This document shows positions 6,794 through 55,760 of a stretch of DNA of 64,000 nucleotides, one piece after another. Numbering within the stretch: position 1 is the stretch's first letter; each line of letters begins with the position of its first letter. The DNA comes from Elsinoe ampelina (taxonomy: Eukaryota): contig ML992502.1 of assembly GCA_010093995.1 (NCBI GenBank), positions 737,001 to 801,000 of the forward strand. The letters run 5' to 3'. The position numbers and the translations under genes are program-made. The notes below the pieces were generated by a model. It saw nothing but the letters and a program-made list of their open reading frames with translations. It was not told the DNA's origin and did not search any database.

Positions 6794-7643
6794 NNNNNNN
6801 NNNNNNNNNNNNNNNNNNNNNNNNNNNNNNNNNNNNNNNNNNNNNNNNNNNNNNNNNNNNNNNNNNNNNNNNNNNNNNNNNNNNNNNNNNNNNNNNNNNN
6901 NNNNNNNNNNNNNNNNNNNNNNNNNNNNNNNNNNNNNNNNNNNNNNNNNNNNNNNNNNNNNNNNNNNNNNNNNNNNNNNNNNNNNNNNNNNNNNNNNNNN
7001 NNNNNNNNNNNNNNNNNNNNNNNNNNNNNNNNNNNNNNNNNNNNNNNNNNNNNNNNNNNNNNNNNNNNNNNNNNNNNNNNNNNNNNNNNNNNNNNNNNNN
7101 NNNNNNNNNNNNNNNNNNNNNNNNNNNNNNNNNNNNNNNNNNNNNNNNNNNNNNNNNNNNNNNNNNNNNNNNNNNNNNNNNNNNNNNNNNNNNNNNNNNN
7201 NNNNNNNNNNNNNNNNNNNNNNNNNNNNNNNNNNNNNNNNNNNNNNNNNNNNNNNNNNNNNNNNNNNNNNNNNNNNNNNNNNNNNNNNNNNNNNNNNNNN
7301 NNNNNNNNNNNNNNNNNNNNNNNNNNNNNNNNNNNNNNNNNNNNNNNNNNNNNNNNNNNNNNNNNNNNNNNNNNNNNNNNNNNNNNNNNNNNNNNNNNNN
7401 NNNNNNNNNNNNNNNNNNNNNNNNNNNNNNNNNNNNNNNNNNNNNNNNNNNNNNNNNNNNNNNNNNNNNNNNNNNNNNNNNNNNNNNNNNNNNNNNNNNN
7501 NNNNNNNNNNNNNNNNNNNNNNNNNNNNNNNNNNNNNNNNNNNNNNNNNNNNNNNNNNNNNNNNNNNNNNNNNNNNNNNNNNNNNNNNNNNNNNNNNNNN
7601 NNNNNNNNNNNNNNNNNNNNNNNNNNNNNNNNNNNNNNNNNNN
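6794..7643. other. assembly gap (N)
   Basis: Run of N. Confidence 1.
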
Positions 7644-9575: not shown

Positions 9576-11122
9576 ACACGACTAGCGAGGGACAGGAATC
9601 CCGTGAGAACACTAATGGTTCATGACAAGCGTTCAAGCGAAGCATATGGCATATAGCGTAGGACAATCGCCCAAAGAAGGCTCAGATGTATAGATTAGAT
9701 ATGATAATGGCAAACAATCAAATAAATAAACAATACCTATACCCTGCATCTTAGTGCTCGTGATGATTAGTGCTGATACTCGTAGAATGCTGGAGACCAA
9801 AGTACTGGTGAGGAGACAGGTATCAAAGCAGGATCACAGCTGTGACAACCATGCCTAGCAACCAACAGCACGTCGTCAACCCACTAGCGCCGCCAGTGAA
9901 ATGCAGCACGCCAGACTCGTTCCTCACCACAGTGCCAAGTGCGGCAGCGTTTCCAGCGTCGTCTCCTGGATTCCATAGTCCTGGCACTGCTCCTGGCTAA
10001 TCAGGTCGTGATCACCTCTCAGTCCCGCCATGGTTATCTCCCATGCCCAGAGTCTGCTGTGGTGGTAAGGCCATGGTCTCGTCGCCTGCGACTAGGATGG
10101 CGTCGCCTTGGGAGTTGGTAGTGAGCACAACTGAGGAGGGAGGAGGCGGGAATAAAATGGAGATCAGCTACTGTGATCATGCTCGCTTGGAGACAAATAC
10201 TGTCCCTGAGCTCAGCAGTAGTGCATACATCATGCAACGCATTTGCCACCGAGGAGATCTGATGTACTGATGGAGATAAGGCAGCGACACCGACATGCAA
10301 TGGCGTCGAGCGGGATGTTGACTTCTGCATTAGGCCAAAACGTGAAGCTCCACACTGTGGACGCTAACATAGTGTTATTTATAGGCTGACACGGGAGATC
10401 ACGGTCTTCGATTTAAGGTCGAAGAAATATGAGCTCTGTGTGTCGCCGAAGGCGAGTGTGACTTCAGCTCCACGAGGAAATGAACCCATACCTCGAAGCG
10501 AGCCTATTGCTACATTGAGAGAGGATGAACCAATGACGTACTCGAAAGTCTAGGGGTACACCGCACTTTTGATCGAGATGTTTCGTTTGTACGGTAAGGG
10601 CAAGTCAGGCTTATGGAGAACGTCTCCAGCCAAATCGATGCTTGTCATGTTCTGGCCCGCATCCTAGAGCATTCTCTATTCCTTGATTTCAGCGTATCCA
10701 GCAGACGATCCCCCGACTGTCGCCTGATGTAGTATAGAGGCCTCTCATTGGCCACTTCAACTGGCACGAGCCCGGTGACCGACGAATTCGCCGACACAGG
10801 CATCTCACTATCATGATAAGGGGCCCGTTTTGACGGTCTCGGTCGAGATGACTTGCCTATCATCTGCAATGATGCGGCCGAATCCCCTCTTCCGTTGACC
10901 GGGGTTTCCTATCTATTTCGCGACGAATCCCACGTTCTAACCAGCCGCGGTCCTGGCAGATTGAGCTGCTACGGGAAGACCATATTTTAGATACTGTGCA
11001 AAGGTCCACGCACAGCGCAAAGGCGAATATTGGTAGATTTTGCAAACCCGTCAATTGCGCTTTCAGAACTTCTCAGCATTCGACCGTCGTCCTGACACTG
11101 ACAGCCACGATGCGAGCTGACC

Positions 11123-13486
11123 ATGTCGGCGGGAAGGGAAGTCAGCCACATGAAGGAAGATTCGATAGATTCCTCATTGAAGATCCCACGGACACTTGAT
11201 CAGCAACTTATAGGCCCGCGAACGTTAGTGCAGCATCACCAGGATTCCGACCGCCACCTCGAATGCGAGAATAAGCCGCAAGCTAACATACCAAATGGCA
11301 ACGCTGTCTTGGAAATGCCTTCGGGTGGCTGTTTCCAACCAAAGACGGAAGACACTATCCAAGCGTCGGCATCTCAAGACGAAAGCCAGGTCGCAAAGGG
11401 CCCAAACGCGTTACCGAAGCCTAGAAGGAAACCCAAACGCATATCAGCACAGAAGGAGAAGGGCACGGAGAGGAGACAGGGAGCGAAGCAATGCAAGGGA
11501 AAGAGAAAGAAGCAGACGAAAACCACAGCTATTGAAGGCGAAGGATTCTCAGTGGAGGGTGGTGGGTCAGACCTCGTGGATCCGCAGCAAGAGCTTGTCG
11601 AGGACGAATCTGGTAAAGATGAAGAAGATCTCGACAACTTTGAAAAGTTCCTCGCCAAGCACGATTTCTGGAGGGAACGAGGGATACGTCGAATCCAGAG
11701 GTTAGAGCGCTGTAGCGTTGATCGAACAGACCCCAGGTCTTTCGAAGCCTTTCTGATAGGCGATGCGAATAAGTGTCGTTGGGAGGGTAGAGACCTATTT
11801 AAAGATCCCAACGAGAACGGTACCTACACAGAGTGTAAGCTCAGGACTATTAAGGCCCTTCTTAGGATCGTTGAGCGACGTAGGGCGCAAGCAAAGGTAC
11901 ACGATCAGATGATGGACGGCCAAAGTTTTGCCGGCTGTCACCTAGGAACATTGCTACGGTGGAGCGCAGAGGAGCTAACAGCAATGATCATTGCTTGTAT
12001 GCCTGCAAATACTACTGGTGTTCTCGGTCGTACGACACTCGGAGAAGCAGATATGGTCGACATGGCTACGTTCACTACCGAGGATCTTTCAGGTTGGATT
12101 ATCTACTTTGGCATGGTCATACAGCCAGATAGTACGGTAGAATGCTACATCGGTGCGGGCACCGATGCGAAGGGAAGTGGTAGACGCGTTATCGAGGGTT
12201 ATGAGAAAAGTTTACGGAAGGCGAGGAGCAATATTTGGAGCAGTGTCTTCTCATCAAGTCATTTTCTAATGCGAGCAGCGCTGCCGGGTGCGAAAGTACA
12301 TCTTCGACCACTTATTAGCGTGCCCATCCCACCGACCGAGGACCGTGCAATGGAAGCAAGAGCCTTCGTTAATCTCGTGGAGGGTCTACTAGTCGACTAT
12401 CTACAAACGCTAAATATGGACATAGTCCGCAGGGCCAAACCGGAAGATGAAGGCGAGGGGGCATGGCTGAACAGCCCCATCATTGGAGAAACATCATCCG
12501 ATCTAGCGCCAACACATCTCGAGAAGACCTGGATCGGTCTGAATAGAGCACATCCACTCTATCAGAGTAGCAAATCTCCCCACGCTCGACGTCATGACAT
12601 CACAGACTTGCTCTTACGGACTGCTAGGCAGTATGGCACTTCTCTTTGTCAGGTGTGTCTGGTTGTAGACATGCGTACCGTAAAGACTCGACAACCTGAC
12701 GTACTACATCCTCCTAAGTGGCTACCTAAGCTCATCTGCTCGCCGTGTGGTCAGTGGTTGCGGACTCGTAATCATGCAGCACTCAGGGACATCGCCACTC
12801 TAGCCGAGTTACAGTCTAGCCGTAAGACCACCATGGAACTAGGCGCCCATCATGTCCATATCGTGAAGCACGAGAACTTGCTAGCGACTGCTGGAAGCCA
12901 TTGCCCCTGGTGTAACGCCAGATTTGCTACACTACAGGACGGCGAATCCGATGGTATGGCGATGCTCCGACTTCGCCCAAGCAGATCCCACTGGACAATA
13001 ATGAAAGCAATTCCGAAGCAATCGAGGGAATTCTGGCCTTGGTTATCGGACATACCTGCCGTCTGCTTCAGCTGCTATTCGATTCTGTCCAACATATCAT
13101 ATGCAAAGGACAAGCCGGGTAGGGTAGCAAAACAACTTCATGCGCGAGATTTGCAAAACTGCGCGACGCCGCGAGAGGCATTACGCTGTCAGATAGCCTG
13201 GCAGCGATTGAAGGGAAAGAGAGCCTCTCGTATTGAATTCATACACATCGACGATGCAGGGTTTGTGCAACCGGGGCCAAGCGCAGGACCAATTGTGTAC
13301 GACCCTTGTGATACCGGCAACGACCTGTACCATAGAGACCCGGGCAAGCGCATGACTACTCGACAGGTAGCTGAATTCTTGGGCACAAAAGCTCAACGAA
13401 CGGGTGCCGCACAGTATTCTGCGACTTGCATTGCAGGTATTGTCTGCGAAGGCGGCGGGAGTGTCAAGTATCAGACCCGCCATTAG
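11123..13486 (+). CDS. hypothetical protein, putative GIY-YIG-like nuclease with C-terminal CxxC zinc motifs
   Basis: 787-aa intronless ORF containing WIIY-x13-YIGAGT...GRR, a later Glu (LVEG) and GLN, four CxxC pairs (CQVC, CSPC, CPWC, CFSC) and a basic NLS-like N-terminal patch. Confidence 0.65.
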   Translation: MSAGREVSHMKEDSIDSSLKIPRTLDQQLIGPRTLVQHHQDSDRHLECENKPQANIPNGNAVLEMPSGGCFQPKTEDTIQASASQDESQVAKGPNALPKPRRKPKRISAQKEKGTERRQGAKQCKGKRKKQTKTTAIEGEGFSVEGGGSDLVDPQQELVEDESGKDEEDLDNFEKFLAKHDFWRERGIRRIQRLERCSVDRTDPRSFEAFLIGDANKCRWEGRDLFKDPNENGTYTECKLRTIKALLRIVERRRAQAKVHDQMMDGQSFAGCHLGTLLRWSAEELTAMIIACMPANTTGVLGRTTLGEADMVDMATFTTEDLSGWIIYFGMVIQPDSTVECYIGAGTDAKGSGRRVIEGYEKSLRKARSNIWSSVFSSSHFLMRAALPGAKVHLRPLISVPIPPTEDRAMEARAFVNLVEGLLVDYLQTLNMDIVRRAKPEDEGEGAWLNSPIIGETSSDLAPTHLEKTWIGLNRAHPLYQSSKSPHARRHDITDLLLRTARQYGTSLCQVCLVVDMRTVKTRQPDVLHPPKWLPKLICSPCGQWLRTRNHAALRDIATLAELQSSRKTTMELGAHHVHIVKHENLLATAGSHCPWCNARFATLQDGESDGMAMLRLRPSRSHWTIMKAIPKQSREFWPWLSDIPAVCFSCYSILSNISYAKDKPGRVAKQLHARDLQNCATPREALRCQIAWQRLKGKRASRIEFIHIDDAGFVQPGPSAGPIVYDPCDTGNDLYHRDPGKRMTTRQVAEFLGTKAQRTGAAQYSATCIAGIVCEGGGSVKYQTRH

Positions 13487-13893
13487 CACCTCGACTTACT
13501 CCACGTCCAACAATGTAGCTCTTACAGCGCGCCCCATCACGCTCATGATCGCAATTGGAATGAATAAGTAGATATACACAGCTGAGCTGGAGCCCGATGC
13601 ACAGCATCGACGAGCATGATGAGAACTTGACAAAGTTCAAGGACCGAATCCAGCGCATTACTGAGAACAAGCACGCGACTTATGTACACGAGGGACATTG
13701 GCTTGTTGGGGTCCGGGAAGCAAGGCATTTTGCGCACCTTCGATCCTTGTACCAATACTATAATTTCTCGGAATGAAAAAGTCGTCACGCGGCATGCAAA
13801 GTCGATAACCCCTTTTTACCGTCTCCCCGTATCATGGGTATGCATTACCTGCATGATTTGAGTGCCCAATGCCCGTCAGGCCCGCAAAAGTAA

Positions 13894-14087
13894 TGCCCAC
13901 CTGAGGGATTGAACCACAGACCTTTTCATCACCACTCAATGTGTCGTATACTGCTGGACAGTTAGTAATGGTCGTCCGAACACCCGAAAAACCCTAACCG
14001 AGTGAAACGCTCTACCTATTCAGGAAGTCAGACAACGAAAGAAACTTGTTAGGGATCATTGGAGACATACCACTGAGCTAGACGGGC
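13894..14087 (-). tRNA. tRNA-Thr(CGT) gene with two spliceosomal-type introns and one canonical tRNA intron
   Basis: Exons 14087-14071, 14015-13999, 13950-13949 and 13929-13894 join to a 72-nt cloverleaf GCCCGTC TA GCTC AGTGGTA GAGC G TTTCA CTCGTAA TGAAA AGGTC TGTGG TTCAATC CCTCA GGTGGGC A. A box TAGCTCAGTGG and B box GGTTCAATCC are present. Confidence 0.88.
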
Positions 14088-14825
14088 GGGAGTCGCGTCC
14101 CACGACATCCATTAACGTAACGTCGCTTTTGGGACGAGCCGAAGATATAGGATTCATTATAGAATTTTCAATCCGGAGAGGAGCCCTGGCAGTGACGATT
14201 AACGTTGAACAGTGTAGTATGCTCCAACGAGCTGATGGAGTGAATTCGGATTGAGCTACGTAAGTTGACTTCATCCATTAAGGCTTGCCCAGGTCTCATA
14301 ACATAACGTGGCGTCTTGCCATCCCGCAGCTCTAGCTTTGCCAGTTCTGTTTCTGTGTCACTGCAGCTAATGCGAGCAAATTCTTGAAAACGTGCAGGCC
14401 GACAATCGACGAGTCGAGGGCTGGGAACCACTCAGCCTTGTTCTTCGAATCTTGTAGCAAAGGGTTGACCGACTGGTGACACCTTCCATGGCACCGCAGA
14501 GATGTCAAAATCTGGCGCGTTCTCTCGACGACGACTCCTGAACAGTCGTAATTGACGTACGTAAATCGTACATGTTGTCGCGCATCCTATTTATTCAGTA
14601 TTGTTGTATTTCTCTACGGTGTTCCAGATGCTGTATGAAATCCTTGGAGCTGGACGTGAACCAGAAGCTCACAGCCACAACCAGGAATGATGTCACAGTG
14701 CGCCACCATCACATGCAGGCTCCATCATCTTGGAACTGACCGGATTGCTGGGAAAAATTGCAAATACGACATTTCGGAAGACTTCATTCTTTATCTAATA
14801 CTCCAAAGATCTACAACAAGGCATC

Positions 14826-16300
14826 ATGCCAGCCATATTCGATTATCTGTCTTTCGCGCGCGCAAAGAAGGTGCTCCAATCCCCGGCGACTCACTCCAAG
14901 CAGGGCTAATCTTCACATAGAACACGGAAGATTTGGCAAAGACCAATCCTCAAAACCCAGTCCTCAAACATGATGATGAGCAATTTCTGCATCGAGTAGC
15001 ATCGCAAGATGTTCCGGCAGCTCCATTGCCACCCAGCACCATCAAGGACGATGGCACCGAAGAAATTGCCGAGTCGCAGCAACTGAAGGAGGTCGGCGAG
15101 GCAGCAGGAACAGTGGCCCTGCCCGCAGTGTCCGAGACAGGGAACACCGATCTCTCAAAGGCACCTGATGCTACTGCCACTGACAATAAGGAGGCGTCTG
15201 AAGCTCAGAAGCGAACGTGGGGTTCATATGTGCCGTCAGTCCCTTCGATCCCATCTATACCTTCACTTCCCGCGTGGCGATCGAAGGCGGCTGAGAAGGC
15301 ACCTGATGCTGTCAAGGACAAGATCGCCCCCAAAGATGAGTCTGGTGCGCCTATCGTATCTACGACTGCCACAGCCGACGACAAGGGTAAAGCACCCGCT
15401 ACTGGAGATGACGACAAGGCAGCCGATGCGTATCCTCCTGGTGTCAAGATCACAGAAGACGTCAAGCTGGATCAAGCGAAGCTCGATCAAGATGAAAAGG
15501 AGGTGTCCGTGATCCTTGACCGTCTTAATCTCTCCTCTATCAATAACAGAGTCTTCTCCTTCTCCGACAAGTCCCAGCAACTCTACCAAGATTTCACCGT
15601 CATCCTCAAGGATATGATCAACGGCGCACCAACAGCCTACCACGACATGGAGAAGCTTCTCCGCGACAACGAAGCCCACCTATCTGAAATGTTCAACAAC
15701 ATGCCGCCCTTCGTCCAAACACTAGTCAAGTCACTCCCAGCCAAGATGGGGACATCCCTTGGCCCTGAGATTCTGGCCGCCGCAAGTGAGAAGCCTGGCG
15801 CAGATATGAAAGCCCGCATGTCAGCGGCAAGCAAAACTCCCACAACCAGTAAGAACAAGAAGAAGGTTCCCAGCGTCAAGGGTCTGGCCAACCAGAAAGG
15901 TGCCATAGCAAGCATGCTCAGAAGCATCGTCACCTTTCTGCAGACTCGCTTCCCGGTCATACTCACCGGTACCAATGTCATCATGAGTCTAGCGGTCTTT
16001 ATCCTGCTTTTCGTCTTCTGGTATTGCCACAAGCGTGGCCGAGAGACAAGGCTGCTAAAGGAAGCAGATGCTGCATCTCTCAATGATGCCTCTGATGCCG
16101 AGTCTGGACTTGACGAAAGCCAGATTTTGACGCCCGAGTCAAGCACAGCGGAATTGGAGAAGGAATCTGGAGATCTTCCCAATCTTGATGATGTTGATGG
16201 AAAGGCCGCTGAAGAAATTCTCAATAGGCCTGAGCCAGCTGAGGTGCCGCTAAGAGAGGATGAAAAGGCCCTGCACGGCGATAAAGCTAGTGCGCCTTGA
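14826..16300 (+). CDS. conserved fungal single-pass membrane protein
   Basis: Predicted exon 1 14826-14870 (MPAIFDYLSFARAKK) and intron 14871-14920 (GT..GCTAAT..TAG), in frame with the 455-aa ORF. One TM segment (NVIMSLAVFILLFVFWYC) followed by HKRGRE. Confidence 0.8.
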
Positions 16301-16476
16301 ATACTTGAGGACCCGAGACCTAGACGAGAAACGATGGACGGATAATCACGATATACCCTTGGATCAGACTGAACTTGCTTCCATGATTTACGACAGCACA
16401 ATGTAGTCTTAGCTTCAGTAATTACACGTTCATACACAAGTATATACACACCCTTTCCCCCCTTCCCATCCCTCCT

Positions 16477-17515
16477 CTAATCCACCTCCGGCACAGGCAG
16501 TCCATCCACAATCTCCATCCTCAACTTCAACTTCTCCATCGCCTTCCTCGCCTCCTGCGTCCTCAACTCCCTCGTCTCCTCCTCCGTGACCAACACAAAA
16601 TCATACGTCAACAACTTCGCCCCCTCCTTGACCCCATACTTCTCCACCTCCCCTTTCCCAACCTCTCCCAGACTAACAATCAAACTCTCCTTGACCCCAA
16701 ACACCGCATCACTACTCTCATACGGATCACCCTTCAGATACAATGCCGTAATCAAATGATCATACCCCTCCTTCTGAAACATAAAATGCATGTGTCCCGG
16801 CCTGTAGCAATGCCGTCCCAGCTGCACCAACAATTTCCCCACCGGCCCATCGTGTGGGATAGGGTACGGCACCGGCACAATGCCCTTGAACCAGAACTGT
16901 CCCTGGCCATCACTCTTCAGCACCGCCCGTCCATCCGGCTCTTCTCGTCCTTTATACTGCACGTCGTAAAACCCCTTACTATCCGTCTCCCACACATCGA
17001 TCGTCACGCCCTTGAGGGGCCTCCCCGACGTGTCCTTCACGCTGCACACGACCAGCAGCGGCGTCCCGTCTGGGTCATGGGAGATGGCGTCCCCGCTGGC
17101 GAGTGTGTGGGCGTCATGGGTGTGGAAGGGGCCCAGGACGGTGCCTTCCGTGGAGTGTGAGGGTTTGGGGTGGTCGATGCTGTCGACTAGCAGGGAGAGG
17201 CCGAGGATGTCGCTTAGCAGGATGAATTCTTGGCGGACGTCGGTGCAGATTTGGCCCGTGGAGGTGAGGAATTGGATTGCGGTCATCCATTCGGCGGTGC
17301 TGAGGCGGGTTTCTTGAGAGGGTTAGAGGGGGGTGGTAAGGGGACGGGGACGGGGACGAACCGCGGGCGTAGTCGTGGAGGTGGGTGACGAGGCGTTCGA
17401 GGAGGTATTTGAGGCGGGGGTTGGAGCAGCGTGAGTTGATAAGGTGGACGTTGTCGGTGATGTTGTCGATTGTGAGGTCTTTGAGGGGAGGGATGTCGAC
17501 TTTGGAGGGATCCAT
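16477..17515 (-). CDS. intradiol ring-cleavage dioxygenase (hydroxyquinol/catechol 1,2-dioxygenase family)
   Basis: LVTHLHDYAR/ETRL, EFILLSDILG, GTVLGPF, GFYDVQY, YPIPHDGPVG and RPGHMHF (Fe ligands Tyr/Tyr/His/His). One intron at ~17313-17361. Confidence 0.95.
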
Positions 17516-37049: not shown

Positions 37050-39797
37050 CTACAACGTCCCAGTACCACGGTAGTTGTCCGGGTCTCCGTCCAGGTCTCC
37101 CTCGTAGAGATCCTCATCGACGTCTACGCCCTCTTCCTCCTCCAGTTCCGGATCCGACTGCATGTCCCAATCGACACCGACGTCGACACTCTCGTCGTCG
37201 TCGTCGTCTTCTTCCTCTTCTTCCTCCTCACCGTTGTCGGGAATCTCAATCGGTCCCTGCTGCTCTGCGCCCCGCTGCTGCGATGTCTCGGTCGTAGCTA
37301 CAGTTGCTTCCTCTGGCTTCTCCGCCTCTGCTTCGGGCTCAGGCGCAGGCGACGCACTTGCTGCACTAGCGGAGCTCGTCCTGCGCTTCTTCCTCTTACT
37401 GACGTCCTCTCCACTCGCTTCACGCACCCTCTTCAGTGCCGCCTTCTCCTCTTTCCTGCTCGTTGCTTTGCCCATGCTGACATTCTCTTCTCGTTCTTCG
37501 ACCCAGCTTGCGTCTCCAATCTGCACTCTCCTCCTGCCCACGGACGAAGCGACGCTACTCGCGCGACTCCTGCTGGTGCTGCTCACTTCACTCTCGGTGG
37601 AGCTGAATGCGGACCCCTCCCTCTCCCTCCTGCCTGGCTGACTGGCGTTGACACCATCGTAGATACGATTCAGAGCCTCGTAGTCGATGTTCTTACTGAA
37701 AGCGGGAGGAGCACGTTTGCTCAGCATTCTTGCTGTCGCATCGGCCGGACTGGTGACGGGTGATCCTTCAAGGACTGTACCGTCTCCCATCTTGCTCCTC
37801 CTTCGCTTTTTCTTCTTCTTGTCTGACTTGCCCTCTGCCTTTTCAAGTTCTTGTCGGAGGATCTTGGCTTGTTGAGCGCGCAGCCAATCTTCGTTATCAC
37901 GCAGCCAGATAGCCTCTTTGACTCTGGCTGTCTCTTCGTCCAGGACAGCATTGATCACCTCGGGGTCGTCGGCAAACTCGTCTGGATCAATAATCTCGCT
38001 ATCCGATATGGTGGAAATGGTACGCCCTTGAGCCGCGAGACGATCAGCTAGTGCTCTAGCTGCAATGCTGCGTTGTTCCTCAGCAGTCTGCTTGGCTCGT
38101 GCATTCAGCTTCTCGCGCTCGGCATCATCACGAGCAGATACGCAGTCTTCATCTTGCAAGATCGACTTGATATCGTATTCCAGCTCGTTCTCAGAAGCAA
38201 AGTCAGCCTCGGTGAATTGGATTACCGGCGGCTGCTTGCGACCACGCTTCTTCGGTGGCTCGTTGCCGTCTGATGGGGCAGTCTGTGCTGTTTGAGATGA
38301 TGGCAGGGGAGGTATGACAAAGCCATCTGCATCGCGGCGTGTTTCCTGAGTCGCAGATGGTGGGAAGCTGGCCGCTTGTGGTTGTGAGGTAGAATCTTGA
38401 GTTTGGGAAGAGTCTGGCGTTGGTAAGGGTGCGTTTTGGTTCTGGGAGATGGTGTCGTTGGTGCGGACTGAATTTCTCTTCCTCTTAGCTGGTGTGACCG
38501 TGCCAGTACCTTGGGGGGCGCCAGAAGCTGGAGCAGAATTGGCAGGTGGAGTAGTCTCCTCTGAAGAATCTGGTACGTCACTCGTCGGTGCCTCGGACTG
38601 TGACCTTTCACTGTCAACGTCGGATGGTGCCAAAGAAGATTGTCTAGATGTGTCTGAGATGGTTTCGGCGGTCTTCTGCTCCAGTCTGGCCATACGCTTT
38701 CTCAGATGATTTTCTAGTCGACTTTGACGCATATTGGCAGCATTGACAGAAGGAGGGTCGTGAGCGTACTTGAGTCGAAGGCCGTTGATACGGAATTGCT
38801 GAACGCTCATGGCACTACTCCTTGTCTGCTTGAATTCCTGGAGACGACTGTTGATGGTAATGTTTGAGACCTTGACGATGTAGACTACTTCTCGGACAGT
38901 TCTGCGGAAATTGTTCATGCGGGCAGCGAGAATAATGCATGCACCACAGAGACCAGCAGGGTGACGACCAGTGACCATCCAATCTCTCTTCATACGTCTA
39001 ATGATTCGAGCGGCGTCTGCCGCGACTTCTCTGGTCTTGTCGCCGAATTCCAGTCTCTGACAGTATTTCATGAGAAGTGGCTCAATCTCCATAAGCACCT
39101 TGACATTATGTGTCTGTCGAAGATAGAGTACTTTTGTCATCTCCTTGTAGATGTCACCGAGTGAAAAGACATTGACCTGTTGTGTCTCCGCAATGTCCAT
39201 GAGCATGATGGTATTGTTCTCCTCACGACGGCAGGCAGCATACAGACATGCGGCGGCGACTTCATTCGTCCTGCGACCTTGAATGAAGTTGTTGGCGGAC
39301 GCTAGTCCCCAGATAGTGTTGGCCATTTCTTCGACTGTCTTGCTGATACCGAGTTGAATACACATCTGTCTGAGCTCGTTCCTGCCATTCTCCTTGGTCT
39401 CTTCGCGAGTCTCACGTGTCGATCCTCCTAGCCTGCGATTTGCCTGACTACCGAGGGTGTTGGCGTGACGAGCATCATTTCCAATGTATCCGCCCTGGAC
39501 TTCAGCTCTGCCGGTGGACGATTCGCCGAACGTAACTTCCGAGACGATATTGTTTTCACTGAGTTGATTACCGCAATTGGTACAGATCAAGCAGCCATCG
39601 TGGGTTTCGAGCTTAGGATTATCGCAGCATTTGCTTGTTGTTTCTGTAGGCGCTGCGTGGACGGGTGGGGTTGCAGACACAGGTGGTGGCGTGGCGGGTA
39701 TGCCTGTGAATGTCTTGTTGCGTCCAAGACGACGTACACCTGGTCGTGGCTTGGAGATGGGCGGAGCGGGAGGCATAGTGAATGCCACCGCCGTCAC
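37050..39797 (-). CDS. BRF1: TFIIIB subunit Brf1
   Basis: Zinc ribbon (CCDNP..CTNCG), IVSEVTFGE, cyclin folds (IQGRR..AACLY.ACR; RDWMVTGRHPAGLCGAC) and C-terminal Brf1 blocks (KEAIWLRDNEDW, FSKNIDYE). Confidence 0.96.
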   Translation of the reverse strand: MTAVAFTMPPAPPISKPRPGVRRLGRNKTFTGIPATPPPVSATPPVHAAPTETTSKCCDNPKLETHDGCLICTNCGNQLSENNIVSEVTFGESSTGRAEVQGGYIGNDARHANTLGSQANRRLGGSTRETREETKENGRNELRQMCIQLGISKTVEEMANTIWGLASANNFIQGRRTNEVAAACLYAACRREENNTIMLMDIAETQQVNVFSLGDIYKEMTKVLYLRQTHNVKVLMEIEPLLMKYCQRLEFGDKTREVAADAARIIRRMKRDWMVTGRHPAGLCGACIILAARMNNFRRTVREVVYIVKVSNITINSRLQEFKQTRSSAMSVQQFRINGLRLKYAHDPPSVNAANMRQSRLENHLRKRMARLEQKTAETISDTSRQSSLAPSDVDSERSQSEAPTSDVPDSSEETTPPANSAPASGAPQGTGTVTPAKRKRNSVRTNDTISQNQNAPLPTPDSSQTQDSTSQPQAASFPPSATQETRRDADGFVIPPLPSSQTAQTAPSDGNEPPKKRGRKQPPVIQFTEADFASENELEYDIKSILQDEDCVSARDDAEREKLNARAKQTAEEQRSIAARALADRLAAQGRTISTISDSEIIDPDEFADDPEVINAVLDEETARVKEAIWLRDNEDWLRAQQAKILRQELEKAEGKSDKKKKKRRRSKMGDGTVLEGSPVTSPADATARMLSKRAPPAFSKNIDYEALNRIYDGVNASQPGRREREGSAFSSTESEVSSTSRSRASSVASSVGRRRVQIGDASWVEEREENVSMGKATSRKEEKAALKRVREASGEDVSKRKKRRTSSASAASASPAPEPEAEAEKPEEATVATTETSQQRGAEQQGPIEIPDNGEEEEEEEDDDDDESVDVGVDWDMQSDPELEEEEGVDVDEDLYEGDLDGDPDNYRGTGTL

Positions 39798-41705: not shown

Positions 41706-41895
41706 GGGATCTATTTAGTACGTAAGAAATTACTTATATTAAATAAGTTTAATGCTAAGACCTAGTAAAAACTCTTTACTACTACTATAACTACTCTATA
41801 CTATACGTGTACTACTTTAAGTTAGATAAACTAAGTCTAGTTCGGTAGCCGAACTAGATTAATATCTATCTCGGCCGCTAAGCTAGTTAAATTGT

Positions 41896-42358
41896 TATTA
41901 CGAACTGTCTAAACATAGCCTACACTAGTAGTCTAAGCTAAGCTAAGAACGAGGTAGTTTTACTTCTATAGTAGTATAGTACTAAGGTAAGAGTTAGAGA
42001 AGGTATGTCTTATAGATAATAAAGTACATTTAGATAGTATTATAAAGGCTAGCCTTAGTAATACTAGTGTTTACTATCTAGACAAGGTTAACTATAGTAC
42101 TTATATAAGGTAAGGACTACTCCTATATATATATGTTCTTTACTATATACTCTATATGCTCTATATACTCTATAGCAAGAGTCGGGGGCAATATAGAGTA
42201 TATGTCTACTAGTAACCTATATGCTCTATAGTCCCTAGAGTAGAGCTACTAGAGAAGATAGAGAACTAGGTAAACGTCGGGCTAGGTTACGTAATAACTC
42301 TAGTAGTTTAATTAGTCCTAACGTCTCTATACTTTAGCTATCCTACTAGTTTATAACA
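41896..42358 (-). repeat. 3' LTR of Gypsy copy 2
   Basis: 463 bp, with the polypurine tract adjacent on its internal side. Confidence 0.95.
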
Positions 42359-42432
42359 TTACTCTCCTCTCTTAATTAAGTTATCCTAATAAGTAAGTAT
42401 TCTTTCTTATTCTTACGCGCTATATACTAAAT

Positions 42433-42981
42433 ATGTCTCTTAGTTATTAAAGGCATAGTAAATCTAGTATATCTGTACGAAAGAACCTCTTAGAGTTTAT
42501 TAAATTGTTTAGAACTAACATGCTATAAGCTTACTCTTATTATAAGTCGAAAGAGTTAAACTATAAAGTCTATATTTAGTTAGGTATTTATAGCTAGTAT
42601 ATCGCAAGTAACTACTTGAGTTATAATATTTAAGTAACAAAATTAGAATAGTAGCGTCTCTAGTCTAAGCATATTTATTAGTAAAAGGAATTAGTTACGG
42701 CTAAGGCTACTAGAAAGAAAGCTAAAGAAGCTTATAAAAAGGCAAAAGAGGCTTATTAAAGAGCTATAGGTAATAAGCTTTACCTACGTAAAGAGATATA
42801 AAAGTTAGAGGACAAGGTAGAGAAAGTAATCTCTCTAGAAGAGACTTATATTTAAGTCTTAGAGTAGGAGGAAATACTATTGTTAGTAGATCCTGTCCTA
42901 CTATAGAACTAGTAATTATTTATACCTAACTCTAATTAGAGTTCCTTACTTAGTAACAATTAAGGTGCTCTTATTAGTTAA
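42433..42981 (+). pseudogene. antisense extra ORF of Gypsy copy 2 (Zn2Cys6-like plus coiled coil); end approximate
   Basis: ATG at 42433 and ~180 codons. TAY codons are spaced x2-x6-x8-x2-x7 and followed by KELV..AKATRKKAKEA..KAKEA. Confidence 0.65.
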
Positions 42982-45233
42982 GTAATCTTCCTTAGGTATT
43001 CTCGTTTTTGTTTAGTATTTAGAGTACTAGGTCTATCTAGTTAGTTTACTTAGAATAGGTTCTTAATCTAGTAATCTAGAATTACTTATAAGGTAAAGTG
43101 CTCCTCTAGTTCCTATATTACTTTACTATACTAATATCCCTTCTAGTAAATAAGATAGTAGTATTTTCCTTTTATAAGTTTATAACGTAAAACTCTTTCG
43201 ATCTTATACTATAGCTCCTATGTTTCTTTATCTAGTTCGATAGGTCTAGGTATAGTATTCTATAGTGCTTTCTCTAGTAGTAATATATAAAAGACTAGAT
43301 AGATCCTTATATGTCTTAGTAGTTCTAGTTTATATACGTTCTTATTTTTCTTTTCTAGGATCTTAAAGAGTTCTAGCTTAGTATAGTTAAGTTTCTTACT
43401 TAGTTGCTTCGTTTTAATGTTTTTACTAAGGAGGTAAACTTTCTCCCCCTTCTATAGAATTAGTCCTATAATTCTCTTCTAGTTAGTAAACTCTACTATT
43501 CTTTGTAATATAAATACTATATTATAGTATAGCTAGTTATATAGTTTCTTAATGTTAGCTACTAGTATATTAGCGTCCTTAGATATTAGCTTAATTCTAA
43601 GTGTGTTATAGTATAGATCTAAGTATATTCTATAGTTTATATAGAATAGTAAAATTCTATTTACTAACTTTCTATTATTAATAGCGAGCTCTACGAGTAG
43701 TAATAGTGTTACCTATAAGTCTTACTTATAGTTTAGGTAGTATTATAGGTACTACTCTAGTACTTAATTTGCCTATTTAGTTTATCCGTCCGTCTAAAGA
43801 TAAAAGGAGGTTAATAGCTTATATTTAACTCCTATTAGGTCTATAAATAATTGCTAGAATTATAACATAAATAGCTTATCCCTATTAGTTATTAGGTCTT
43901 ATAGTACTTTATGTTATAAAACAATTATTTAGAGAAAGGTAAAGGCTATATCCTCGGTAGTTACTATTATCTTATATAGTATAAAGTAGTAATACTTCGT
44001 AAACCTATCTACTAGGACTAGAATACTATTATACTTTATACCTATAAGAGGTTCTTCTAATAGCGGTAAAGGTCCTATAAAGTCTATTATAACTAATTAC
44101 TATAGTTTATCCAGTAGTAGTAAGAGTTATAATAGGCTATATAACTTATGTCGTAAGTACTTAGACTTATAGCATATATCGTATATAGTAATATATGTCT
44201 TAATATTATTTTAGAGTTCTTTCTATAGGTAGTTTTATATAATAAGTTTAATAGTCTTATCGATCCTACTATACTCTACTATTAGGTTATTATAGTGTAT
44301 TTAAATAACTTCTTTCTTCTATTCTTACGTAAGCTCCTAGGTAAGGCTATATAACTACTCTACCTTCGGGTACTTATAGACTAGAGCGCTATCTTACTAC
44401 TTTAGTATAGAGGCCTCTATTATTATTATATTCTTTAAGTAATCTAGTTATTAGCTAAGAGCGTCTACTCTACTATTCTCTAATCCCTTAATATAGTAGA
44501 TCTAAAAGTTATAGCTTATAAGTGTTTCTAACTATTAAACCTATTATCTATTAAGAACCTTAGTTGTTGTTTAATATAATAGGTTTTTATAGTTAGTATA
44601 GACTTATATAGGTAAGGTTATTTCTTCTAGGTATACTCTCTATTTACGGAATGCCTTTATAATTGTAAGTAACTCTTTATTATATATGTTATAGTTAAGT
44701 TTAGGTCTAGTTATTTTTCGTAAGTAATATATAATTAGGTAGCGTTATTCTTCCGCGTTCTTCTACGCTAGATATGCTCTTATTATAAAGTCCGAGGCAT
44801 CTATTTCTAGTAGTGCTTATTAGTCTAGGTTAAAGAGTACTAGAATAGGTACTATTATAAGTCTAAGCTTTAGCTTCTTAAAGGCCTATCTACATTTCTT
44901 ATTAAAGATAAATCTAGTTTCTTTCTTTATAAGGTTAGATATTAGCATAGCTACCTTAGAGAATTCTTTAATAAACTTATAGTAGTAGTTAAAGAACTCT
45001 AGTAGCGCTTAAACCTCCTTAACTATAGTAGGTTCTAGCTAGTTATTTACTAACTTAATCTTTTTTAGGTTAGGTCTAATGCTATTAGTAGATATAATAT
45101 AGCTTAGAAATTATATCTTATATTTATAAAACTCACACTTAGAGAGCTTTACTAGTAGGTCTTTTTCTTTTAGTTTCTATAGTACTTTACGAATATATCC
45201 TACATATTTATTATACGTCTTTAAGAAGATAAC

Positions 45234-45696
45234 TATTACGAACTATCTAAACATAGCCTACGCTAGTAGTCTAAGCTAAGCTAAGAACGAGGTAGTTCTA
45301 CTTCTATAGTAGTATAGCACTAAGGTAAGAGTTAGAGAAGATATGTCTTATAGATAATAAAGTACAATTAGATAGTATTATAAAGGCTAGCCTTAGCAAT
45401 ACTAGTGTTTGCTATCTAGACGAGGTTAACTATAGTACTTATATAAGGTAAGGACTACTCCTATATACATGTATTCTTTACTATATACTCTATATACTCT
45501 ATATACTTCGTAGCAAGAGTCGGAGGTAATATAGAGTATACATCCGCTAGTAACCTATATGCTCTATAGTCCCTAGAGTAGAGCTACTAGAGAAGATAGA
45601 GAACCGAGTAAACGTCGGGCTAGGTTACGTAATAACTCTAGTAGTTTAATTAGTCCTAGCGTCTCTACGCTTTAGCTATCCTACTAGTTTATAACA
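45234..45696 (-). repeat. 3' LTR of Gypsy copy 3
   Basis: 463 bp, homologous to the other LTRs. Confidence 0.95.
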
Positions 45697-47918
45697 TTAC
45701 TTTTCTCCCTTAATTAAGTTGTCCTAATAAGTAAGTATTCTTTCTTGTCCTTATACGCTATATACTAAACATGTCTCTTAGTTATTAAAGACATAGTAAA
45801 TCTAGTATATCTACACGAAAGAACCTCTTAGAGTTTATTAAATTGTTTAGAACTAACATACTATAAGCTTACTCTTATTATAAGTCGAAAGAGTTAAACT
45901 ATAAAGTCTATATTTAGTTAGGTATTTATAGCTAGTATATTATAAGTAACTACTCGAGTTATAATATTTAAGTAATAAAATTAGAATAGTAGAGTAATAA
46001 AATTAGAATAGTAGCGTCTTTAGTCTAAGTATATTTATTTACGAAAGGAATTAGTTATAGCTAAGGCTACTAGAAAGAAAGCCGAAGAAGCTTATAAAAA
46101 GGCAAAAGAGGCTTATTAAAGAGCTATAGGTAATAAGCTTTACCTACGTAAAGAGATATAAAAGTTAAAGGATAAGGTAGAGAAAGTAATCTCTCTAGAA
46201 GAGACTCGTATTTAAGTCCTAGAGTAGGAGGAAATACTATCGTTAGTAGATCCTATCCTACTATAGAACTAGTAATTATTTATGCCTAACTCTAATTAGA
46301 GTTCCTTACTTAGTAACGATTAAGGTGCTTCTATTAGTTAAGTAATCTTCCTTAGGCATTCTTATTTTTGTTTAGTATTTAGAGTACTAGGTCCGTCTAG
46401 TTAGTTTACTTAGAATAGGTTCTTAATCTAGTAATCTAGAATTACTTACGAGGTAAGGTACTTCTCTAGTTCCTATATTACTTCGCTATACTAATGTCTC
46501 TTCTAGTAAATAAGATAGTAGTGTTTTTCTTTTATAAGTTTATAACGTAAAACTCTTTCGATTTTATACTATAGCTTCTATGTTTCTTTATCTAGTTCGA
46601 TAAGTCTAGGTATAGTATTCTATAGTACTTTCTCTAGTAGAGATATATAAAAGACTAGATAGATCCTTATATGTCTTAGTAGTTCTAGTTTATATACGTT
46701 CTTGTTTTTCTGTTCTAGGATCTTAAAGAGTCCTAGCTTAGTGTAGTTAAGTTTCTTACTTAGTTACTTCGTTTTAATATTTTTACTAAGGAGGTAAACT
46801 TTCTCCCCCTTCTATAGAATTAGTCCTATAATTCTCTTCTAGTTAGTAAACTCTACTATTCTCTATAATATAAATACTATATTATAGTATAGCTAGTTAT
46901 ATAGTTTCTTAATATTAGCTACTAGTATATTAGTATCCTTAGATATTAGCTTAATTCCGAGTGTGTTATAGTATAGATCTAGGTATATTCTATAGTTTAC
47001 GTAGAATAGTAAAATTCTATTTACTAACTTTCTATTATTAATAGTAAGCTCTACGAGTAGTAATAGTGTCGCCTATAAGTCTTGCTTATAGTTTAGATAG
47101 TATTATAGGTACTACTCTAGTACTTAATTTACCTGTTTAGTTTATCTATCTATCTATAGATAAAAGAAGGTTAATAGCTTATATTTAACTCCTATTAGAT
47201 CTACAAATAATTACTAGAATTATAACGTAAATAGCTTATCTCTATTAGTTATTAGGTCTCGTAGTACTCTATGTTATAAAACAATTATTTAGAGGAAGGC
47301 AAAGACTATATCCTTAGTAGTTACTATTATCTTATATAGTATAAAGTAGTAATACTTCGTAAATCTATCTACTAGAACTAGAATACTATTATACTTTATA
47401 CTTATAAGAGGTTCTTCTAATAGTAGTAAAGGTCCTATAAAGTCTATTATAACTAATTACTATAGTTTATCTAGTAGTAGTAAGGGTTATAATAGGCCGT
47501 ATAGCTTATATCGTAAGTGCTTAGACTTATAGCATATATCGTATGTAGTAATATATGTCTTAATATTGTTTTAGAGTCCTTTCTATAGGTAGTTTTATAT
47601 AATGAGTTTAATAGTCTTATCGATTCTACTATGCTCTACTATTAGGTTATTATAGTGTATTTAAATAACTTCTTTCTTCTATTCTTACGTAAGCTTCTAG
47701 GTAAGGCTATATAACTACTTTACCTTCGGGTGCTTATAGACTAGAGCGCTATCTTACTACTTTAGTATAGAAGTCTCTATTATTGTTATATTCTTTAAGT
47801 AATCTAGTTGTTAGCTAAGAGTATCTACTCTACTATTCTCTAATCCCTTAATATAGTAGATCTAAAAGTTATAGCTTATAAGTGTTTCTAACTATTAAAC
47901 CTATTATCTATTAAGAAC

Positions 47919-48508
47919 NNNNNNNNNNNNNNNNNNNNNNNNNNNNNNNNNNNNNNNNNNNNNNNNNNNNNNNNNNNNNNNNNNNNNNNNNNNNNNNNNN
48001 NNNNNNNNNNNNNNNNNNNNNNNNNNNNNNNNNNNNNNNNNNNNNNNNNNNNNNNNNNNNNNNNNNNNNNNNNNNNNNNNNNNNNNNNNNNNNNNNNNNN
48101 NNNNNNNNNNNNNNNNNNNNNNNNNNNNNNNNNNNNNNNNNNNNNNNNNNNNNNNNNNNNNNNNNNNNNNNNNNNNNNNNNNNNNNNNNNNNNNNNNNNN
48201 NNNNNNNNNNNNNNNNNNNNNNNNNNNNNNNNNNNNNNNNNNNNNNNNNNNNNNNNNNNNNNNNNNNNNNNNNNNNNNNNNNNNNNNNNNNNNNNNNNNN
48301 NNNNNNNNNNNNNNNNNNNNNNNNNNNNNNNNNNNNNNNNNNNNNNNNNNNNNNNNNNNNNNNNNNNNNNNNNNNNNNNNNNNNNNNNNNNNNNNNNNNN
48401 NNNNNNNNNNNNNNNNNNNNNNNNNNNNNNNNNNNNNNNNNNNNNNNNNNNNNNNNNNNNNNNNNNNNNNNNNNNNNNNNNNNNNNNNNNNNNNNNNNNN
48501 NNNNNNNN
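47919..48508. other. assembly gap (N) inside copy 3
   Basis: 590 N. Confidence 1.
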
Positions 48509-51500
48509 TACGTCCTAAAAGCTATCTTCTACTCCTTGCTCTCCTTTATTTATACTTAATAATAGGCGTCTCTAATGTTAATTATAGTAAACTATTTAGC
48601 TCTAAGTAGTCGGTCTTAAAGTTTGTCGATCCTTAGTAGAGAATAGTAATTCTTCCTAGTAAGTATATTAAGTTTCTAGTAATTAATGTATATTTGTAAT
48701 ATTCTATCCTTTTTAGGTACAAAAAGTACTCCGTGCGTAATAGGTAATTTTAATAGTTATATAAATCCTTTAAGTAAGTACTTATCGATATAGTTCTTAA
48801 GAACGTCCTTCTCTTATTTCGATAGTAGTATAAGACCTTAATAGTGTATCGGGGATTTACTCTCTTTAAAGAGTATTTTATAATTCTATAGTTTATATTA
48901 GAGTAAGGCTATAATATTTTTTCTTTCTTTAAATAAGTCCTCGAAGTCTTTATATTCTAGCGGAAGTACTTAATTACTTATACTAGCAATAGCTCTAACT
49001 ATTAGTCGTACCTATACTATTCTTATAGTTAGTATTTATAGAGCTAATTATACTCTCTATGTTCTATAATTACACTTAGGAAATTTAAGTATTTCTTTAA
49101 TCTAGTCTATGTCTAGATTATGTTATTAAAGCTAGTCTATGCTAAGTACTATATTATACTATATGTCTACTATATTAATTAATTGTTTTTCTATGTGTGT
49201 TTCGATTTTAATTATAACATTTTATAGTTCCTAAGTAACTTTCTCGTCCTTCCCTATAGAGGTTCTATTTGCTATAGTAAGTAGGTAAGGTAACTCCTTC
49301 TAGTGTTAATAAGGTTTAAGCTAATTAGCAACTGTTATAGAGACGTAGCTATAGTTAGCTCCTAAATCTATTATTACTCTTACCTTACTCCTTTATATTT
49401 TAACTTCTAGTATAAAGTAGTTTAATATATAGCTCTTTATTATATTAAGGCTTTAGCTAGTATTATTGTCCTGCCTTATTAGGTAACAACTAGCTAGTTT
49501 TTTATCATTGTAGCTCCTTAGATAAGTAGCTAATCTCTTCTTACACGTATCTACTATTAGTACTATATCTATTAGGCAAGTTATGTTTTATTACTATTTA
49601 ATATAGTAAGGTAAACTTCTAGCGCCTAAGTCCCTTAGTAACTATAAAGTCTAATAATTCTCTACTAGTTATACTAAGTAGTGTTATATACCTATATTAG
49701 TATAACTATTCCTTCCGGGTGTAGCTAGGTATTAGTATTAAAGACAAAAACAAGTTATATAGATTTGTCTTGTTATGTCCTATTCTAGTAGTAAGTATAT
49801 ATTATTATATAATTCCTCTATATCCCTATAAGGTATACTTTAAGTTATTCGCCTAGTAGTAGTATATTGTTGTTATTATTATTATTATTAGATAAGTCCT
49901 TATCCGTGTTGTTATATTATAGTTGTTTAGTATATTCTTTGTTATATTTCTCTTCGTTACTACTACCTCTAGTATAGTTATAGTTAGTAAGGCTATACTA
50001 AGTATATTCTCTTACTTAGCTATAGGGGATAGTACTATCTATTTCAATTACCGAGAAGTCTGTAGTGTATTTAAGACTAATAGCTTCTTCTCTAAGTATA
50101 TCGTGTAAGTAGATAGTATAGTATTATTTACAATCTAGATTTGTATATTTCTAGAGTAATATATAATATGCCTTTCCTTATAGTTCGCTATAAGAGCTAA
50201 AGGTAAGGCTACTATATTATTATATAGCGCTTATGTTCTAATACTTCGTCTTAATAATTGTATATTAGTAATTATTGCTAACTACCTTCTAAGGTTAGTT
50301 ACTATTACTACTAATTATAGAGAGCTCTTCTAGGTTAGGTTCCTAGTCTAGCTATTTTATTAGTTGCCTACGCTTAGATAGCTTATATAGGAATTAACTA
50401 GATTCTTACTTATCTAATAAGTAAATATAACAAGAGTTATTATAATATACTATCTATAATAGCGTTGTATATTAGCTTTATTATTTACTATTAGTTATAG
50501 AGATATTAAGCATAATATTCGGAGAGGATTCTACTATCTCTTAAGTTATTATAGACTTCTTCTATGTTTCCTTACCTACACTAAAGGTCGTTAGGTCTTC
50601 TATAGTAGTATTAGCCTTTTTCTCTACTAGCCCGGCAACTATTATATATAATCTATCGGCTAGCGCCTCTTGTCGGTAGTCTCTAGCCTAATACCTAGGT
50701 CTTTTATACTTAAAATATAGATTGTCTTATCTATACTTCTCTCTCTCTTTTCTACTAAGAAACTTTCCTCTATAGCTATAGCCTTATACCTATAAGAGGT
50801 AGCCTTCGTATATAGTATTAAGTTCTATAGAGTCTCTATAGTTTCGAGAGAAATACATATATCTAGTGTTTACCTTATATTCTCTATAACGTTCTATATA
50901 TCGTTTATAAAGTCTATTATTAATAACAATTATAGTGTCTACTAATTCCTAAAGGCTATTAGGTAGCTTAAGTATTATTTAGTCTTTAACTAAGTCGCTT
51001 AGTCCTTAATAGAATACTAAGTGTTTAGTACTATTGTCCTAGTCTAGATATATTACAAGTTATTAGAACTAGGAATAGTACTAGGCTATAGACCTACGTT
51101 GTTATAGTTGTTAAATCTTCGTTATAGTAATACGTTCCTTATTAGATACGTTAAAGACTTACTTAATCTTTACCTAGAAGATGCTAAAGCTCTTAAAGAT
51201 AGCCTTTATATCTAGGCCTAGTTATCTATCTAGGTAGCTACTTATATAAGGCTCGAACTACCCGAAGGTAGCGCCTTTAAGGTGTATCCTAGCATAGAGG
51301 ACCTTTACTACGTTATTAGCGTACTTATCTCCCTCTAGGGCGAAGAAGGCTTTAAGTTAAACAAGAAAGCGCCTTAAGTAGGCGTAGTCCCCGTAGAAGA
51401 GTTCTACTTCTAACTTAGGCTTACTCTATCCTTCTATACTAAAAGACCTTCTATGTTTGCCCGAGGTTAAACTAGTAGTAGATATGTCGTTAATAGTAAG

Positions 51501-51601
51501 CTTTCCTAGCTTACTAGCGATTAAAGATACTAATAGTAACTTAGAGCAAGAGTTACTTATTAACCTCGTAGCGTGCTATACTATAGTAAGGGTAGTTAAA
51601 A

Positions 51602-52064
51602 TGTTACAAACTGTCTAAACATAGCCTACACTAGTAGTCTAAGCTAAGCTAAGAACAAGGTAGTTCTACTTCTATAGTAGTATAGTACTAAGGTAAGAGT
51701 TAGAGAAGGTATGTCTTATAGATAATAAAGTATAATTAGATAGTATTATAAAGGCTAGCCTTAGTAATACTAGTATTCGCTATCTAGATAAGGTTAACTA
51801 TAGTACTTATATAAGGTAAGGACTACTCCTATATATATATATTCTTTACTATATACTCTATATGCTCTATATACTCTATAGCGAGAGTTAGGGGTAATAT
51901 AGAGTGCACGTCCGCTAGTAACCTATATACTCTATAGTCCCTAGGGTAGAGCCGCTAGAGAAGATAGAGAACTAGGTAAACGTCGAGCTAAGTTACGTAA
52001 TAACCCTAGTAGTTTAATTAGTCCTAGCGTCTCTACGCTTTAGCTGTTCTACTAGTTCGTAACA
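51602..52064 (-). repeat. 5' LTR of Gypsy copy 3
   Basis: 463 bp, TGTTAC...GTTCGTAACA. Confidence 0.95.
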
Positions 52065-55000: not shown

Positions 55001-55292
55001 ACGTCGTTAGTATACTTGTCTCTCTCTAGAGCGAAGAAGGCTTTAAGTTAAACAAGAAAGCGCCTTAAGTAGGCGTAGTCTCTATAGAAGAGTTCTACTT
55101 CTAACTTAGACTTACTTCGTCCTTCTATACTAAAAGACCTTCTATGTTCGCCTAAGGTTAAACTAGTAGTAGACATGTCATTAATAGTAAGCTTTCCTAG
55201 CTTACTAGTAATTGAAGATGCTAATAGTAACTTAGAGTAAGAGTTACTTATTAACCTTATAGCGTACTATACTATAGTAAGGGTAGTTAAAA

Positions 55293-55755
55293 TGTTACGA
55301 ACTGTCTAAATATAGCCTATACTAGTAGTCTAAGCTAAGCTAAGAACAAGGTAGTTTTACTTCTATAGTAGTATAGTACTAAGGTAAGAGTCGGAGAAGG
55401 TATATCTTATAGATAATAAAGTATAATTAGATAGTATTATAAAGGCTAGCCTTAGTAATACTAGTGTTCGCTATCTAGACAAGGTTAACTATAGTACTTA
55501 TATAAGGTAAGGACTACTCCTATATATATATGTTCTTTACTATGTACTCTATATGCTTTATATACTCTATAGCGAGAGTCGGGGGCAATATAGAGTATAT
55601 GTCCGCTAGTAACCTATATACTCTATAGTCCCTAGGGTAGAGCTACTAGAGAAGATAGAGAACTAAGTAAACGTTAGGCTAGGTCACGTAATAACCCTAG
55701 TAGTTTAATTAGTCCTAGCGTCTCTACACTTTAGCTGTTCTACTAGTTCGTAACA
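55293..55755 (-). repeat. 5' LTR of Gypsy copy 2
   Basis: 463 bp with an 11-bp terminal inverted repeat TGTTACGAACT...AGTTCGTAACA. Confidence 0.96.
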
Positions 55756-55760
55756 ATTGT

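Follow-up and report, generated by a model that had tools for sequence, protein, structure and literature searches.

A putative tRNA-Thr(CGU) gene of Elsinoe ampelina interrupted by two mRNA-type introns and a canonical tRNA intron

The minus strand of a 64,000-nt stretch of Elsinoe ampelina contig ML992502.1 (hereafter the window) carries, at positions 14087-13894, a tRNA that is split into pieces of 17, 17, 2 and 36 nt. With a probability of roughly 0.7, we interpret this locus as a nuclear ascomycete tRNA-Thr(CGU) gene whose transcript passes through two splicing systems. Two of the three interruptions have the borders of mRNA introns, and assembled contigs from two separate studies contain the tRNA with exactly these two pieces removed and the third one still in place.

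The exon and intron coordinates, lengths and letters proposed in the initial annotation all match the sequence, and they are collected in Table 1 together with the candidate signals for transcription. Positions within the tRNA follow the textbook standard numbering, and the list of conserved and tertiary positions used here is likewise the textbook one. Exon 2 contributes the remainder of the D arm, G26, the 5' strand of the anticodon stem and the part of the anticodon loop that ends with G35, the second base of the anticodon, while exon 4 supplies A38, the 3' strand of the anticodon stem, the variable loop, the T arm, the 3' strand of the acceptor stem and A73. Exon 3 measures 2 nt only if the cuts of the SEN endonuclease are added to those of the spliceosome, which itself would meet these two bases as the beginning of a long 3' exon. 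The 17-nt exon 2, on the other hand, is a true internal micro-exon.

Table 1. Parts of the split tRNA gene and candidate transcription signals around it (positions of the window).
Feature	Positions	Strand	Description
Two TATA-like motifs (TATAA, TATAT)	14144..14161	-	24-40 nt upstream of the first contig base (14121)
5' leader, at least 34 nt	14088..14121	-	covered by the X3 contig, whose ends do not mark those of the RNA
tRNA exon 1	14071..14087	-	17 nt; acceptor 5' strand, positions 8-9, D stem 5' strand, D loop to G18
A-box-like element TAGCTCAGTGG	14070..14080	-	fits TRGYNNARNNG (consensus quoted in PMC7954030)
Intron 1	14016..14070	-	55 nt, GT..AG; D loop, between G18 and G19
tRNA exon 2	13999..14015	-	17 nt; G19 to G35
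Intron 2	13951..13998	-	48 nt, GT..AG; inside the anticodon, G35/T36
tRNA exon 3	13949..13950	-	2 nt; T36 and A37
Intron 3	13930..13948	-	19 nt; canonical tRNA position 37/38
tRNA exon 4	13894..13929	-	36 nt; A38 through discriminator A73
B-box-like element GGTTCAATCCC	13905..13915	-	10/11 positions of RGTTCRANTCC (consensus: PMC7954030)
TTTT run	13886..13889	-	5 nt past the tRNA 3' end; weak Pol III terminator-like site

When all three introns were removed in silico, ARAGORN called a 72-nt tRNA-Thr(cgt), which agrees with the product that had been predicted for exact intron removal; with introns 1 and 2 removed, it called a tRNA-Thr(cgt) with a 19-nt intron. The spliced 72-mer has the stems of a cloverleaf (7, 4, 5 and 5 bp) and an anticodon loop of 7 nt, and its anticodon was called. 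According to ARAGORN, the 7-bp acceptor stem includes two G-U pairs, and the D and anticodon stems are perfect. The T stem contains one T-T mismatch (T51-T63), which counts against the reading as a working tRNA gene. The conserved positions are kept throughout, namely T8, A14, G15/C48, G18 G19, A21, G26/A44, T33, A37, G46, G53, T54 T55 C56, A58, C61 and A73 as well as the pairs G1-C72 and C2-G71. With decay, the loss of at least some of these positions would be expected. Minimum free energy folding of the 72-mer gave a structure other than the cloverleaf, with an energy similar to that of shuffled sequences, which is uninformative, as usual for tRNAs. The longest open reading frame in the spliced transcript amounts to at most 64 aa.

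ARAGORN placed the 19-nt intron in a shifted register, in which position 37 would turn from A to G. Since A37 is expected in tRNAs that decode ANN codons, the register at 37/38 was preferred. Intron 3 indeed opens with TACGA, as described in the initial annotation, but the pairing of this pentamer with the reconstructed loop sequence TCGTA that was proposed along with it had to be dropped, because both segments directly adjoin and no hairpin is possible between them. Judging from the letters, an anticodon-intron helix in which exonic CACTC pairs with GAGTG close to the 3' end of intron 3 is likelier. The codon that such a tRNA would read is in use: across nine Pfam-supported open reading frames of the window, ACG makes up 63 of 315 threonine codons, in line with the earlier remark on its use, and some decoder of ACG is therefore required.

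In its genomic form, the gene escapes the usual searches, as had been foreseen for standard tRNA finders. ARAGORN reported no tRNA gene in the whole 64-kb window or in a 394-nt genomic stretch, and Rfam gave no tRNA in the genomic form at the gathering score and none at E values up to 10 (13700-14300). That tRNA models overlook the unspliced gene is to be expected from its interruptions in the DNA. The same blindness would be met with a decayed tRNA pseudogene that has received chance insertions and is never processed. However, the joined form is present in RNA-type contigs of two studies, and the splice signals lie far beyond chance, which reduces the likelihood of such a pseudogene to almost nothing.

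Evidence at the RNA level came from public sequencing runs, 11 of which matched positions 13600-14400. Two of these are DNA runs, which may be the source of the window itself, five were inferred to be RNA from two studies, and the remaining four carry a second organism label (organism B). The contigs of four runs, X3 and X5 as well as X4 and X8 of organism B, were aligned to positions 13500-14500. Both junctions predicted from the sequence, AGTG/GTAG and CTCG/TATA, are present in a contig of X3 (3223 nt, depth 20.5) and in a contig of X5 (283 nt, depth 3.2), and these two runs belong to separate studies. In either contig, the alignment breaks off at 14068 and resumes at 13951, and the 13 letters between these points are the interior of exon 2; the first three letters and the last letter of this exon were aligned to identical letters at the intron borders. 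The contigs equal the exact removal of introns 1 and 2 over 519 of 519 letters in X3 and 283 of 283 letters in X5, and the 19-nt intron 3 is retained in both. At the 3' end of intron 2, the contig sequences used the distal CAG, by which the anticodon loop is restored, and left the proximal AG at 13955-13954 unused. The exact removal of introns 1 and 2 at the RNA level is supported by these contigs. With introns 1 and 2 gone and intron 3 kept, the RNA of X3 and X5 also has the form that an intermediate should have when the tRNA endonuclease follows the spliceosome, which is consistent with the order of maturation that had been proposed.

The RNA type of X3 and X5 was inferred and not taken from a recorded library type, and the joined form was examined in X3, X4, X5 and X8, with the DNA runs X1 and X2 outside the comparison. 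Both points would suit an explanation in which no splicing occurs and insert-free DNA, from other strains, a second locus or a retrocopy, lies behind the contigs. However, X3 also lacks the 53-nt stretch 14421-14473 close by, which reads CT..AC on the plus strand and thus GT..AG on the minus strand, and this second skip, together with a patchy cover of very unequal depth (20 versus 197), is the reason why X3 was taken as RNA and not as DNA. Furthermore, the window's own flanks were matched with no differing letters over 519 and 283 nt, and both absent pieces have GT..AG ends and branch motifs. An origin of the contigs from insert-free DNA is accordingly regarded as very unlikely. The interiors of introns 1 and 2 (bins 13976-14043) had no covering contig in X3, X4, X5 or X8, a coverage gap that counts as weak evidence for their removal; the contigs of X4 and X8, which stop short of the tRNA gene, and the stretch 14122-14239, which is uncovered in X3, are likewise coverage gaps and carry no weight.

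Both introns fit the U2 type: each begins with GT, closes with AG and has a branch-like motif of the form CTRAY 11-12 nt from the end. Intron 1 starts with GTATGT and holds CTGAC 12 nt from its 3' end (8 nt, then TAG), whereas intron 2 starts with GTTAGG, holds TACTAAC 11 nt from its 3' end and finishes with CAG. The 5' site of intron 2 departs from the usual GTRNGT, which is a point against it. To estimate how often such a combination would arise by chance, segments of the same lengths were counted on both strands of the window, with CTRAY scored 5-30 nt before the segment end. GT..CTRAY..AG was matched by 69 of 124,794 55-mers and 51 of 124,836 48-mers, counts in which real introns are included, and the chance for one fixed segment is about 5e-4 per intron. 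The spliced sequence is compatible with five equivalent cut registers for intron 1 and two for intron 2, one each being GT..AG. Allowing for these registers, the joint chance of both introns' signals is about 2e-6, and the splice signals of both introns are far beyond chance. A loose intron motif occurred 59 times in the window compared to 36 ± 6.6 times in shuffles, an excess too weak to characterise the introns of the genome, and GTTAGG of intron 2 falls outside that motif. For an introner-like spread, no copies of introns 1 or 2 were found elsewhere in the window, where the matches were chance matches of at most 13 nt.

Multiple introns in the D and anticodon loops of tRNA genes are on record from Cyanidioschyzon merolae, nucleomorphs and Crenarchaeota (PMC4090602), and introns 1 and 2 could by analogy be non-canonical tRNA introns whose removal falls to the tRNA splicing endonuclease instead of the spliceosome. 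The bulge-helix-bulge that would be expected then (two 3-nt bulges with the cut sites and a 4-bp helix between them) is absent, with 0 of 4 central-helix pairs for both introns in the GT-AG register and 3 of 4 in the best alternative equivalent register. Instead, the GT..AG borders, GTATGT, CTGAC and TACTAAC stand at the distances seen in introns, and the lengths of 55 and 48 nt resemble the RNA-confirmed 53-nt intron 350 nt away. We therefore give the endonuclease hardly any chance as the agent for introns 1 and 2 and infer that the spliceosome cuts them.

Which polymerase makes the transcript is a closer matter. In the DNA, the A box is continuous, with the first G of intron 1 taking the place of G19, and the near-consensus B-box-like element is the sole B-box match in the window. 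The starts of the two boxes are 165 nt apart. Both internal promoter elements of a type 2 Pol III gene are present. The unbroken A box, the near-consensus B box and the precedent of the intron-bearing U6 gene of fission yeast speak for Pol III. On the minus strand, however, intron 2 contains a TTTTT run at 13991-13987, ahead of the B box. If Pol III were responsible, many transcripts should stop there, before the B box is reached. This internal run is stronger than the TTTT behind the gene, and the next TTTTT downstream follows at 13780-13776. Together with the leader of at least 34 nt and the assembly of the RNA in ordinary long-RNA contigs, this tips our assessment slightly towards Pol II. 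The X5 contig reaches 14098 on the 5' side, and the TATA-like motifs upstream of the first contig base may serve as a promoter.

Some of the same features can be read in another way, as a spliced relic, i.e., a former tRNA within a non-coding Pol II transcript, with ACG being decoded by an intact tRNA-Thr(CGU) elsewhere. The RNA detected is the long-RNA intermediate only, in which intron 3 is kept, and the X3 contig runs far downstream into the neighbouring plus-strand gene. A relic would also be compatible with the mismatched T-T of the T stem and with the TTTTT inside intron 2, with just TTTT after the gene. Contigs carry no strand, and the X3 contig may have been merged with the converging mRNA of the gene at 11102-13486. 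What weighs against a relic is the precision of the arrangement: exact excision brings all conserved and tertiary positions back into place, together with a perfect anticodon arm and a canonical intron at 37/38, the AG in use is the distal one that restores the loop, and without selection there would be no reason for base-exact splice borders or for 72 nt to stay intact. A relic is thus judged unlikely, although it is the most serious of the competing explanations.

For a functional tRNA-Thr(CGU) gene, as we prefer to read the locus, the following maturation pathway is proposed. A minus-strand transcript would start at or upstream of 14121. The 55-nt intron of the D loop (G18/G19) and the 48-nt intron of the anticodon (G35/U36) would then be cut out by the spliceosome, and the product would be an ordinary pre-tRNA with an intron at 37/38. 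Before these spliceosomal steps, there would be no D loop, no anticodon stem and no anticodon. The tRNA endonuclease measures from the mature domain, and since the D loop and the anticodon arm exist only after the action of the spliceosome, it could act only afterwards. The tRNA splicing endonuclease and ligase would subsequently take out the 19-nt intron, and end trimming and CCA addition would yield a 72-nt tRNA reading ACG. We infer these later steps, from the removal of intron 3 and ligation through trimming, CCA addition and charging to use in translation. As a speculation drawn from the letters, an endonuclease working on a transcript that still holds intron 2 might, by its ruler, cut two bases into intron 2. 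The outcome would be a tRNA with the body of tRNA-Thr and the anticodon CGG, which corresponds to the proline codon CCG, and the order of splicing could consequently matter for fidelity.

A more far-reaching version would have this gene as the only source of tRNA-Thr(CGU), transcribed by Pol II, needing two spliceosomal splicings and representing the tip of a hidden class. We consider this combination doubtful. If it were true, the decoding of ACG would depend on the mRNA splicing machinery, and the hidden class would consist of spliceosome-dependent fungal tRNA genes that are skipped by tRNA finders.

The tRNA gene is located in a gap of about 0.75 kb, between the end of a 794-aa plus-strand open reading frame at 13486 and position 14240 or so, where a highly expressed minus-strand transcript has its 3' end. 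This transcript (14240-16300) is represented by a 1945-nt contig of X3 with a depth of 197 and ends about 150 nt upstream of the tRNA. Its RNA-confirmed 53-nt intron (14473-14421, minus strand) reads GTCGGT...CCCAG and has no CTRAY branch motif. Within 14240-16300, no Pfam match was obtained for the minus-strand open reading frames or for an overlapping 459-aa plus-strand frame (14921-16300); among the 14 open reading frames scanned at 11102-17322, a single match was returned, an intradiol dioxygenase at 16477-17322 on the minus strand. The 794-aa frame itself (11102-13486, plus strand) has no Pfam family, and RNA-type contigs extend beyond it to 13836 in X4 and 13890 in X8. The mRNA of this frame seems to run towards the tRNA transcript, whose 3' end it perhaps overlaps.

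Genes in the window further include DUF3292, NDT80/PhoG and Brf1, and the protein clusters closest to its products belong to Ascomycota. The Brf1 homologue (37050-39797, minus strand) has TFIIB repeats and a Brf1 TBP-binding domain and lies 23 kb from the tRNA. Brf1 is a subunit of the Pol III factor TFIIIB, and its nearness to a split tRNA is probably a coincidence. Two tandem direct repeat pairs were also noted, one at 41884-47918 (about 2.7 kb, 93% identity) and one at 48509-55757 (about 3.56 kb, 92.6% identity). Both pairs have an end segment of 460-475 nt in common and may be repeat or transposon remnants. Runs of N occupy 6794-7643 and 47919-48508.

In the accounts consulted (PMC5855946, PMC4090602, PMC7954030), the removal of tRNA introns is the task of a protein endonuclease and a ligase, and the non-coding RNAs listed with spliceosomal introns comprise only snRNAs, U3 and rRNA. 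A maturation by the spliceosome followed by SEN would, if true, join two pathways that are usually treated as separate. The gene would then offer a test case for the spliceosome on a highly structured and possibly Pol III-made transcript, for the way in which a 17-nt internal exon is defined and for intron gain in non-coding genes. In practical terms, fungal tRNA gene sets can be systematically incomplete, and isoacceptors that appear to be missing may hide behind mRNA-type introns. If the fungus had no other Thr(CGU) gene, faults in splicing would directly affect the decoding of ACG.

A literature search confined to full texts, with subscription journals and supplements outside its scope, brought up no paper that describes a tRNA gene with a spliceosomal intron. 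The sections consulted of a 2020 tRNA review mention the spliceosome once, for U6 (PMC7954030), and the description of tRNAscan-SE 2.0 has non-canonical introns handled in archaeal mode only, as far as its consulted part goes (PMC8450103). Metagenome contigs yielded 0 matches to exon 2 with its AG and GT borders and 0 matches to a degenerate pattern of exon 4.

With regard to known systems, multiple introns within a tRNA gene are not new as such. Crenarchaeota, the nucleomorphs of cryptophytes and chlorarachniophytes, and Cyanidioschyzon merolae have tRNA genes with two or three introns, which sit in the D arm and at odd positions of the anticodon loop and are missed by standard finders, much like the gene described here (PMC4090602). 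The non-canonical tRNA introns of eukaryotes, known from nucleomorphs and C. merolae, are attributed to the endonuclease in the same source. In these systems, the introns are 3-24 nt long or bear a bulge-helix-bulge, according to the part of PMC4090602 consulted, whereas introns 1 and 2 lack this motif and carry GT..AG borders, GTATGT, CTGAC and TACTAAC. For transcription, the tRNA-Sec of Trypanosoma brucei, which is made by RNA polymerase II (PMC2943599; cited in PMC7954030), provides the precedent of a nuclear tRNA from Pol II, which becomes relevant if the internal TTTTT excludes Pol III; that tRNA, however, has no spliceosomal intron.

The closest parallels are found among other structural RNAs of fungi. 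Spliceosomal introns are known in U6 (Schizosaccharomyces pombe and others), in U2, U5 and U1 snRNA (Rhodotorula hasegawae) and in ascomycete rRNA genes (PMC5855946), and the U3 snoRNA also carries them (PMC5832005). As in these genes, a conserved structural RNA is broken up by short introns of the GT..AG type with a branch site, which the spliceosome has to take out before folding and function are possible. The U6 gene of fission yeast is a small RNA gene with an mRNA-type intron (PMC5855946), and U6 is a Pol III product (PMC7954030), so that an mRNA-type intron in a Pol III gene with internal promoter elements has a precedent. Different from the snRNA, U3 and rRNA cases, the host is a tRNA, which does not appear in the consulted list of PMC5855946; two such introns are found within one 72-nt RNA, one of them splitting the anticodon; and a canonical tRNA intron is present alongside, so that two splicing systems are needed in turn. 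Since tRNAs are not parts of the spliceosome, the account given for snRNAs, reverse splicing into an RNA neighbouring the active site, is not directly applicable. The arrangement functions in the manner of fungal snRNA genes with mRNA-type introns, except that it occurs in a tRNA, twice, and in addition to a canonical tRNA intron.
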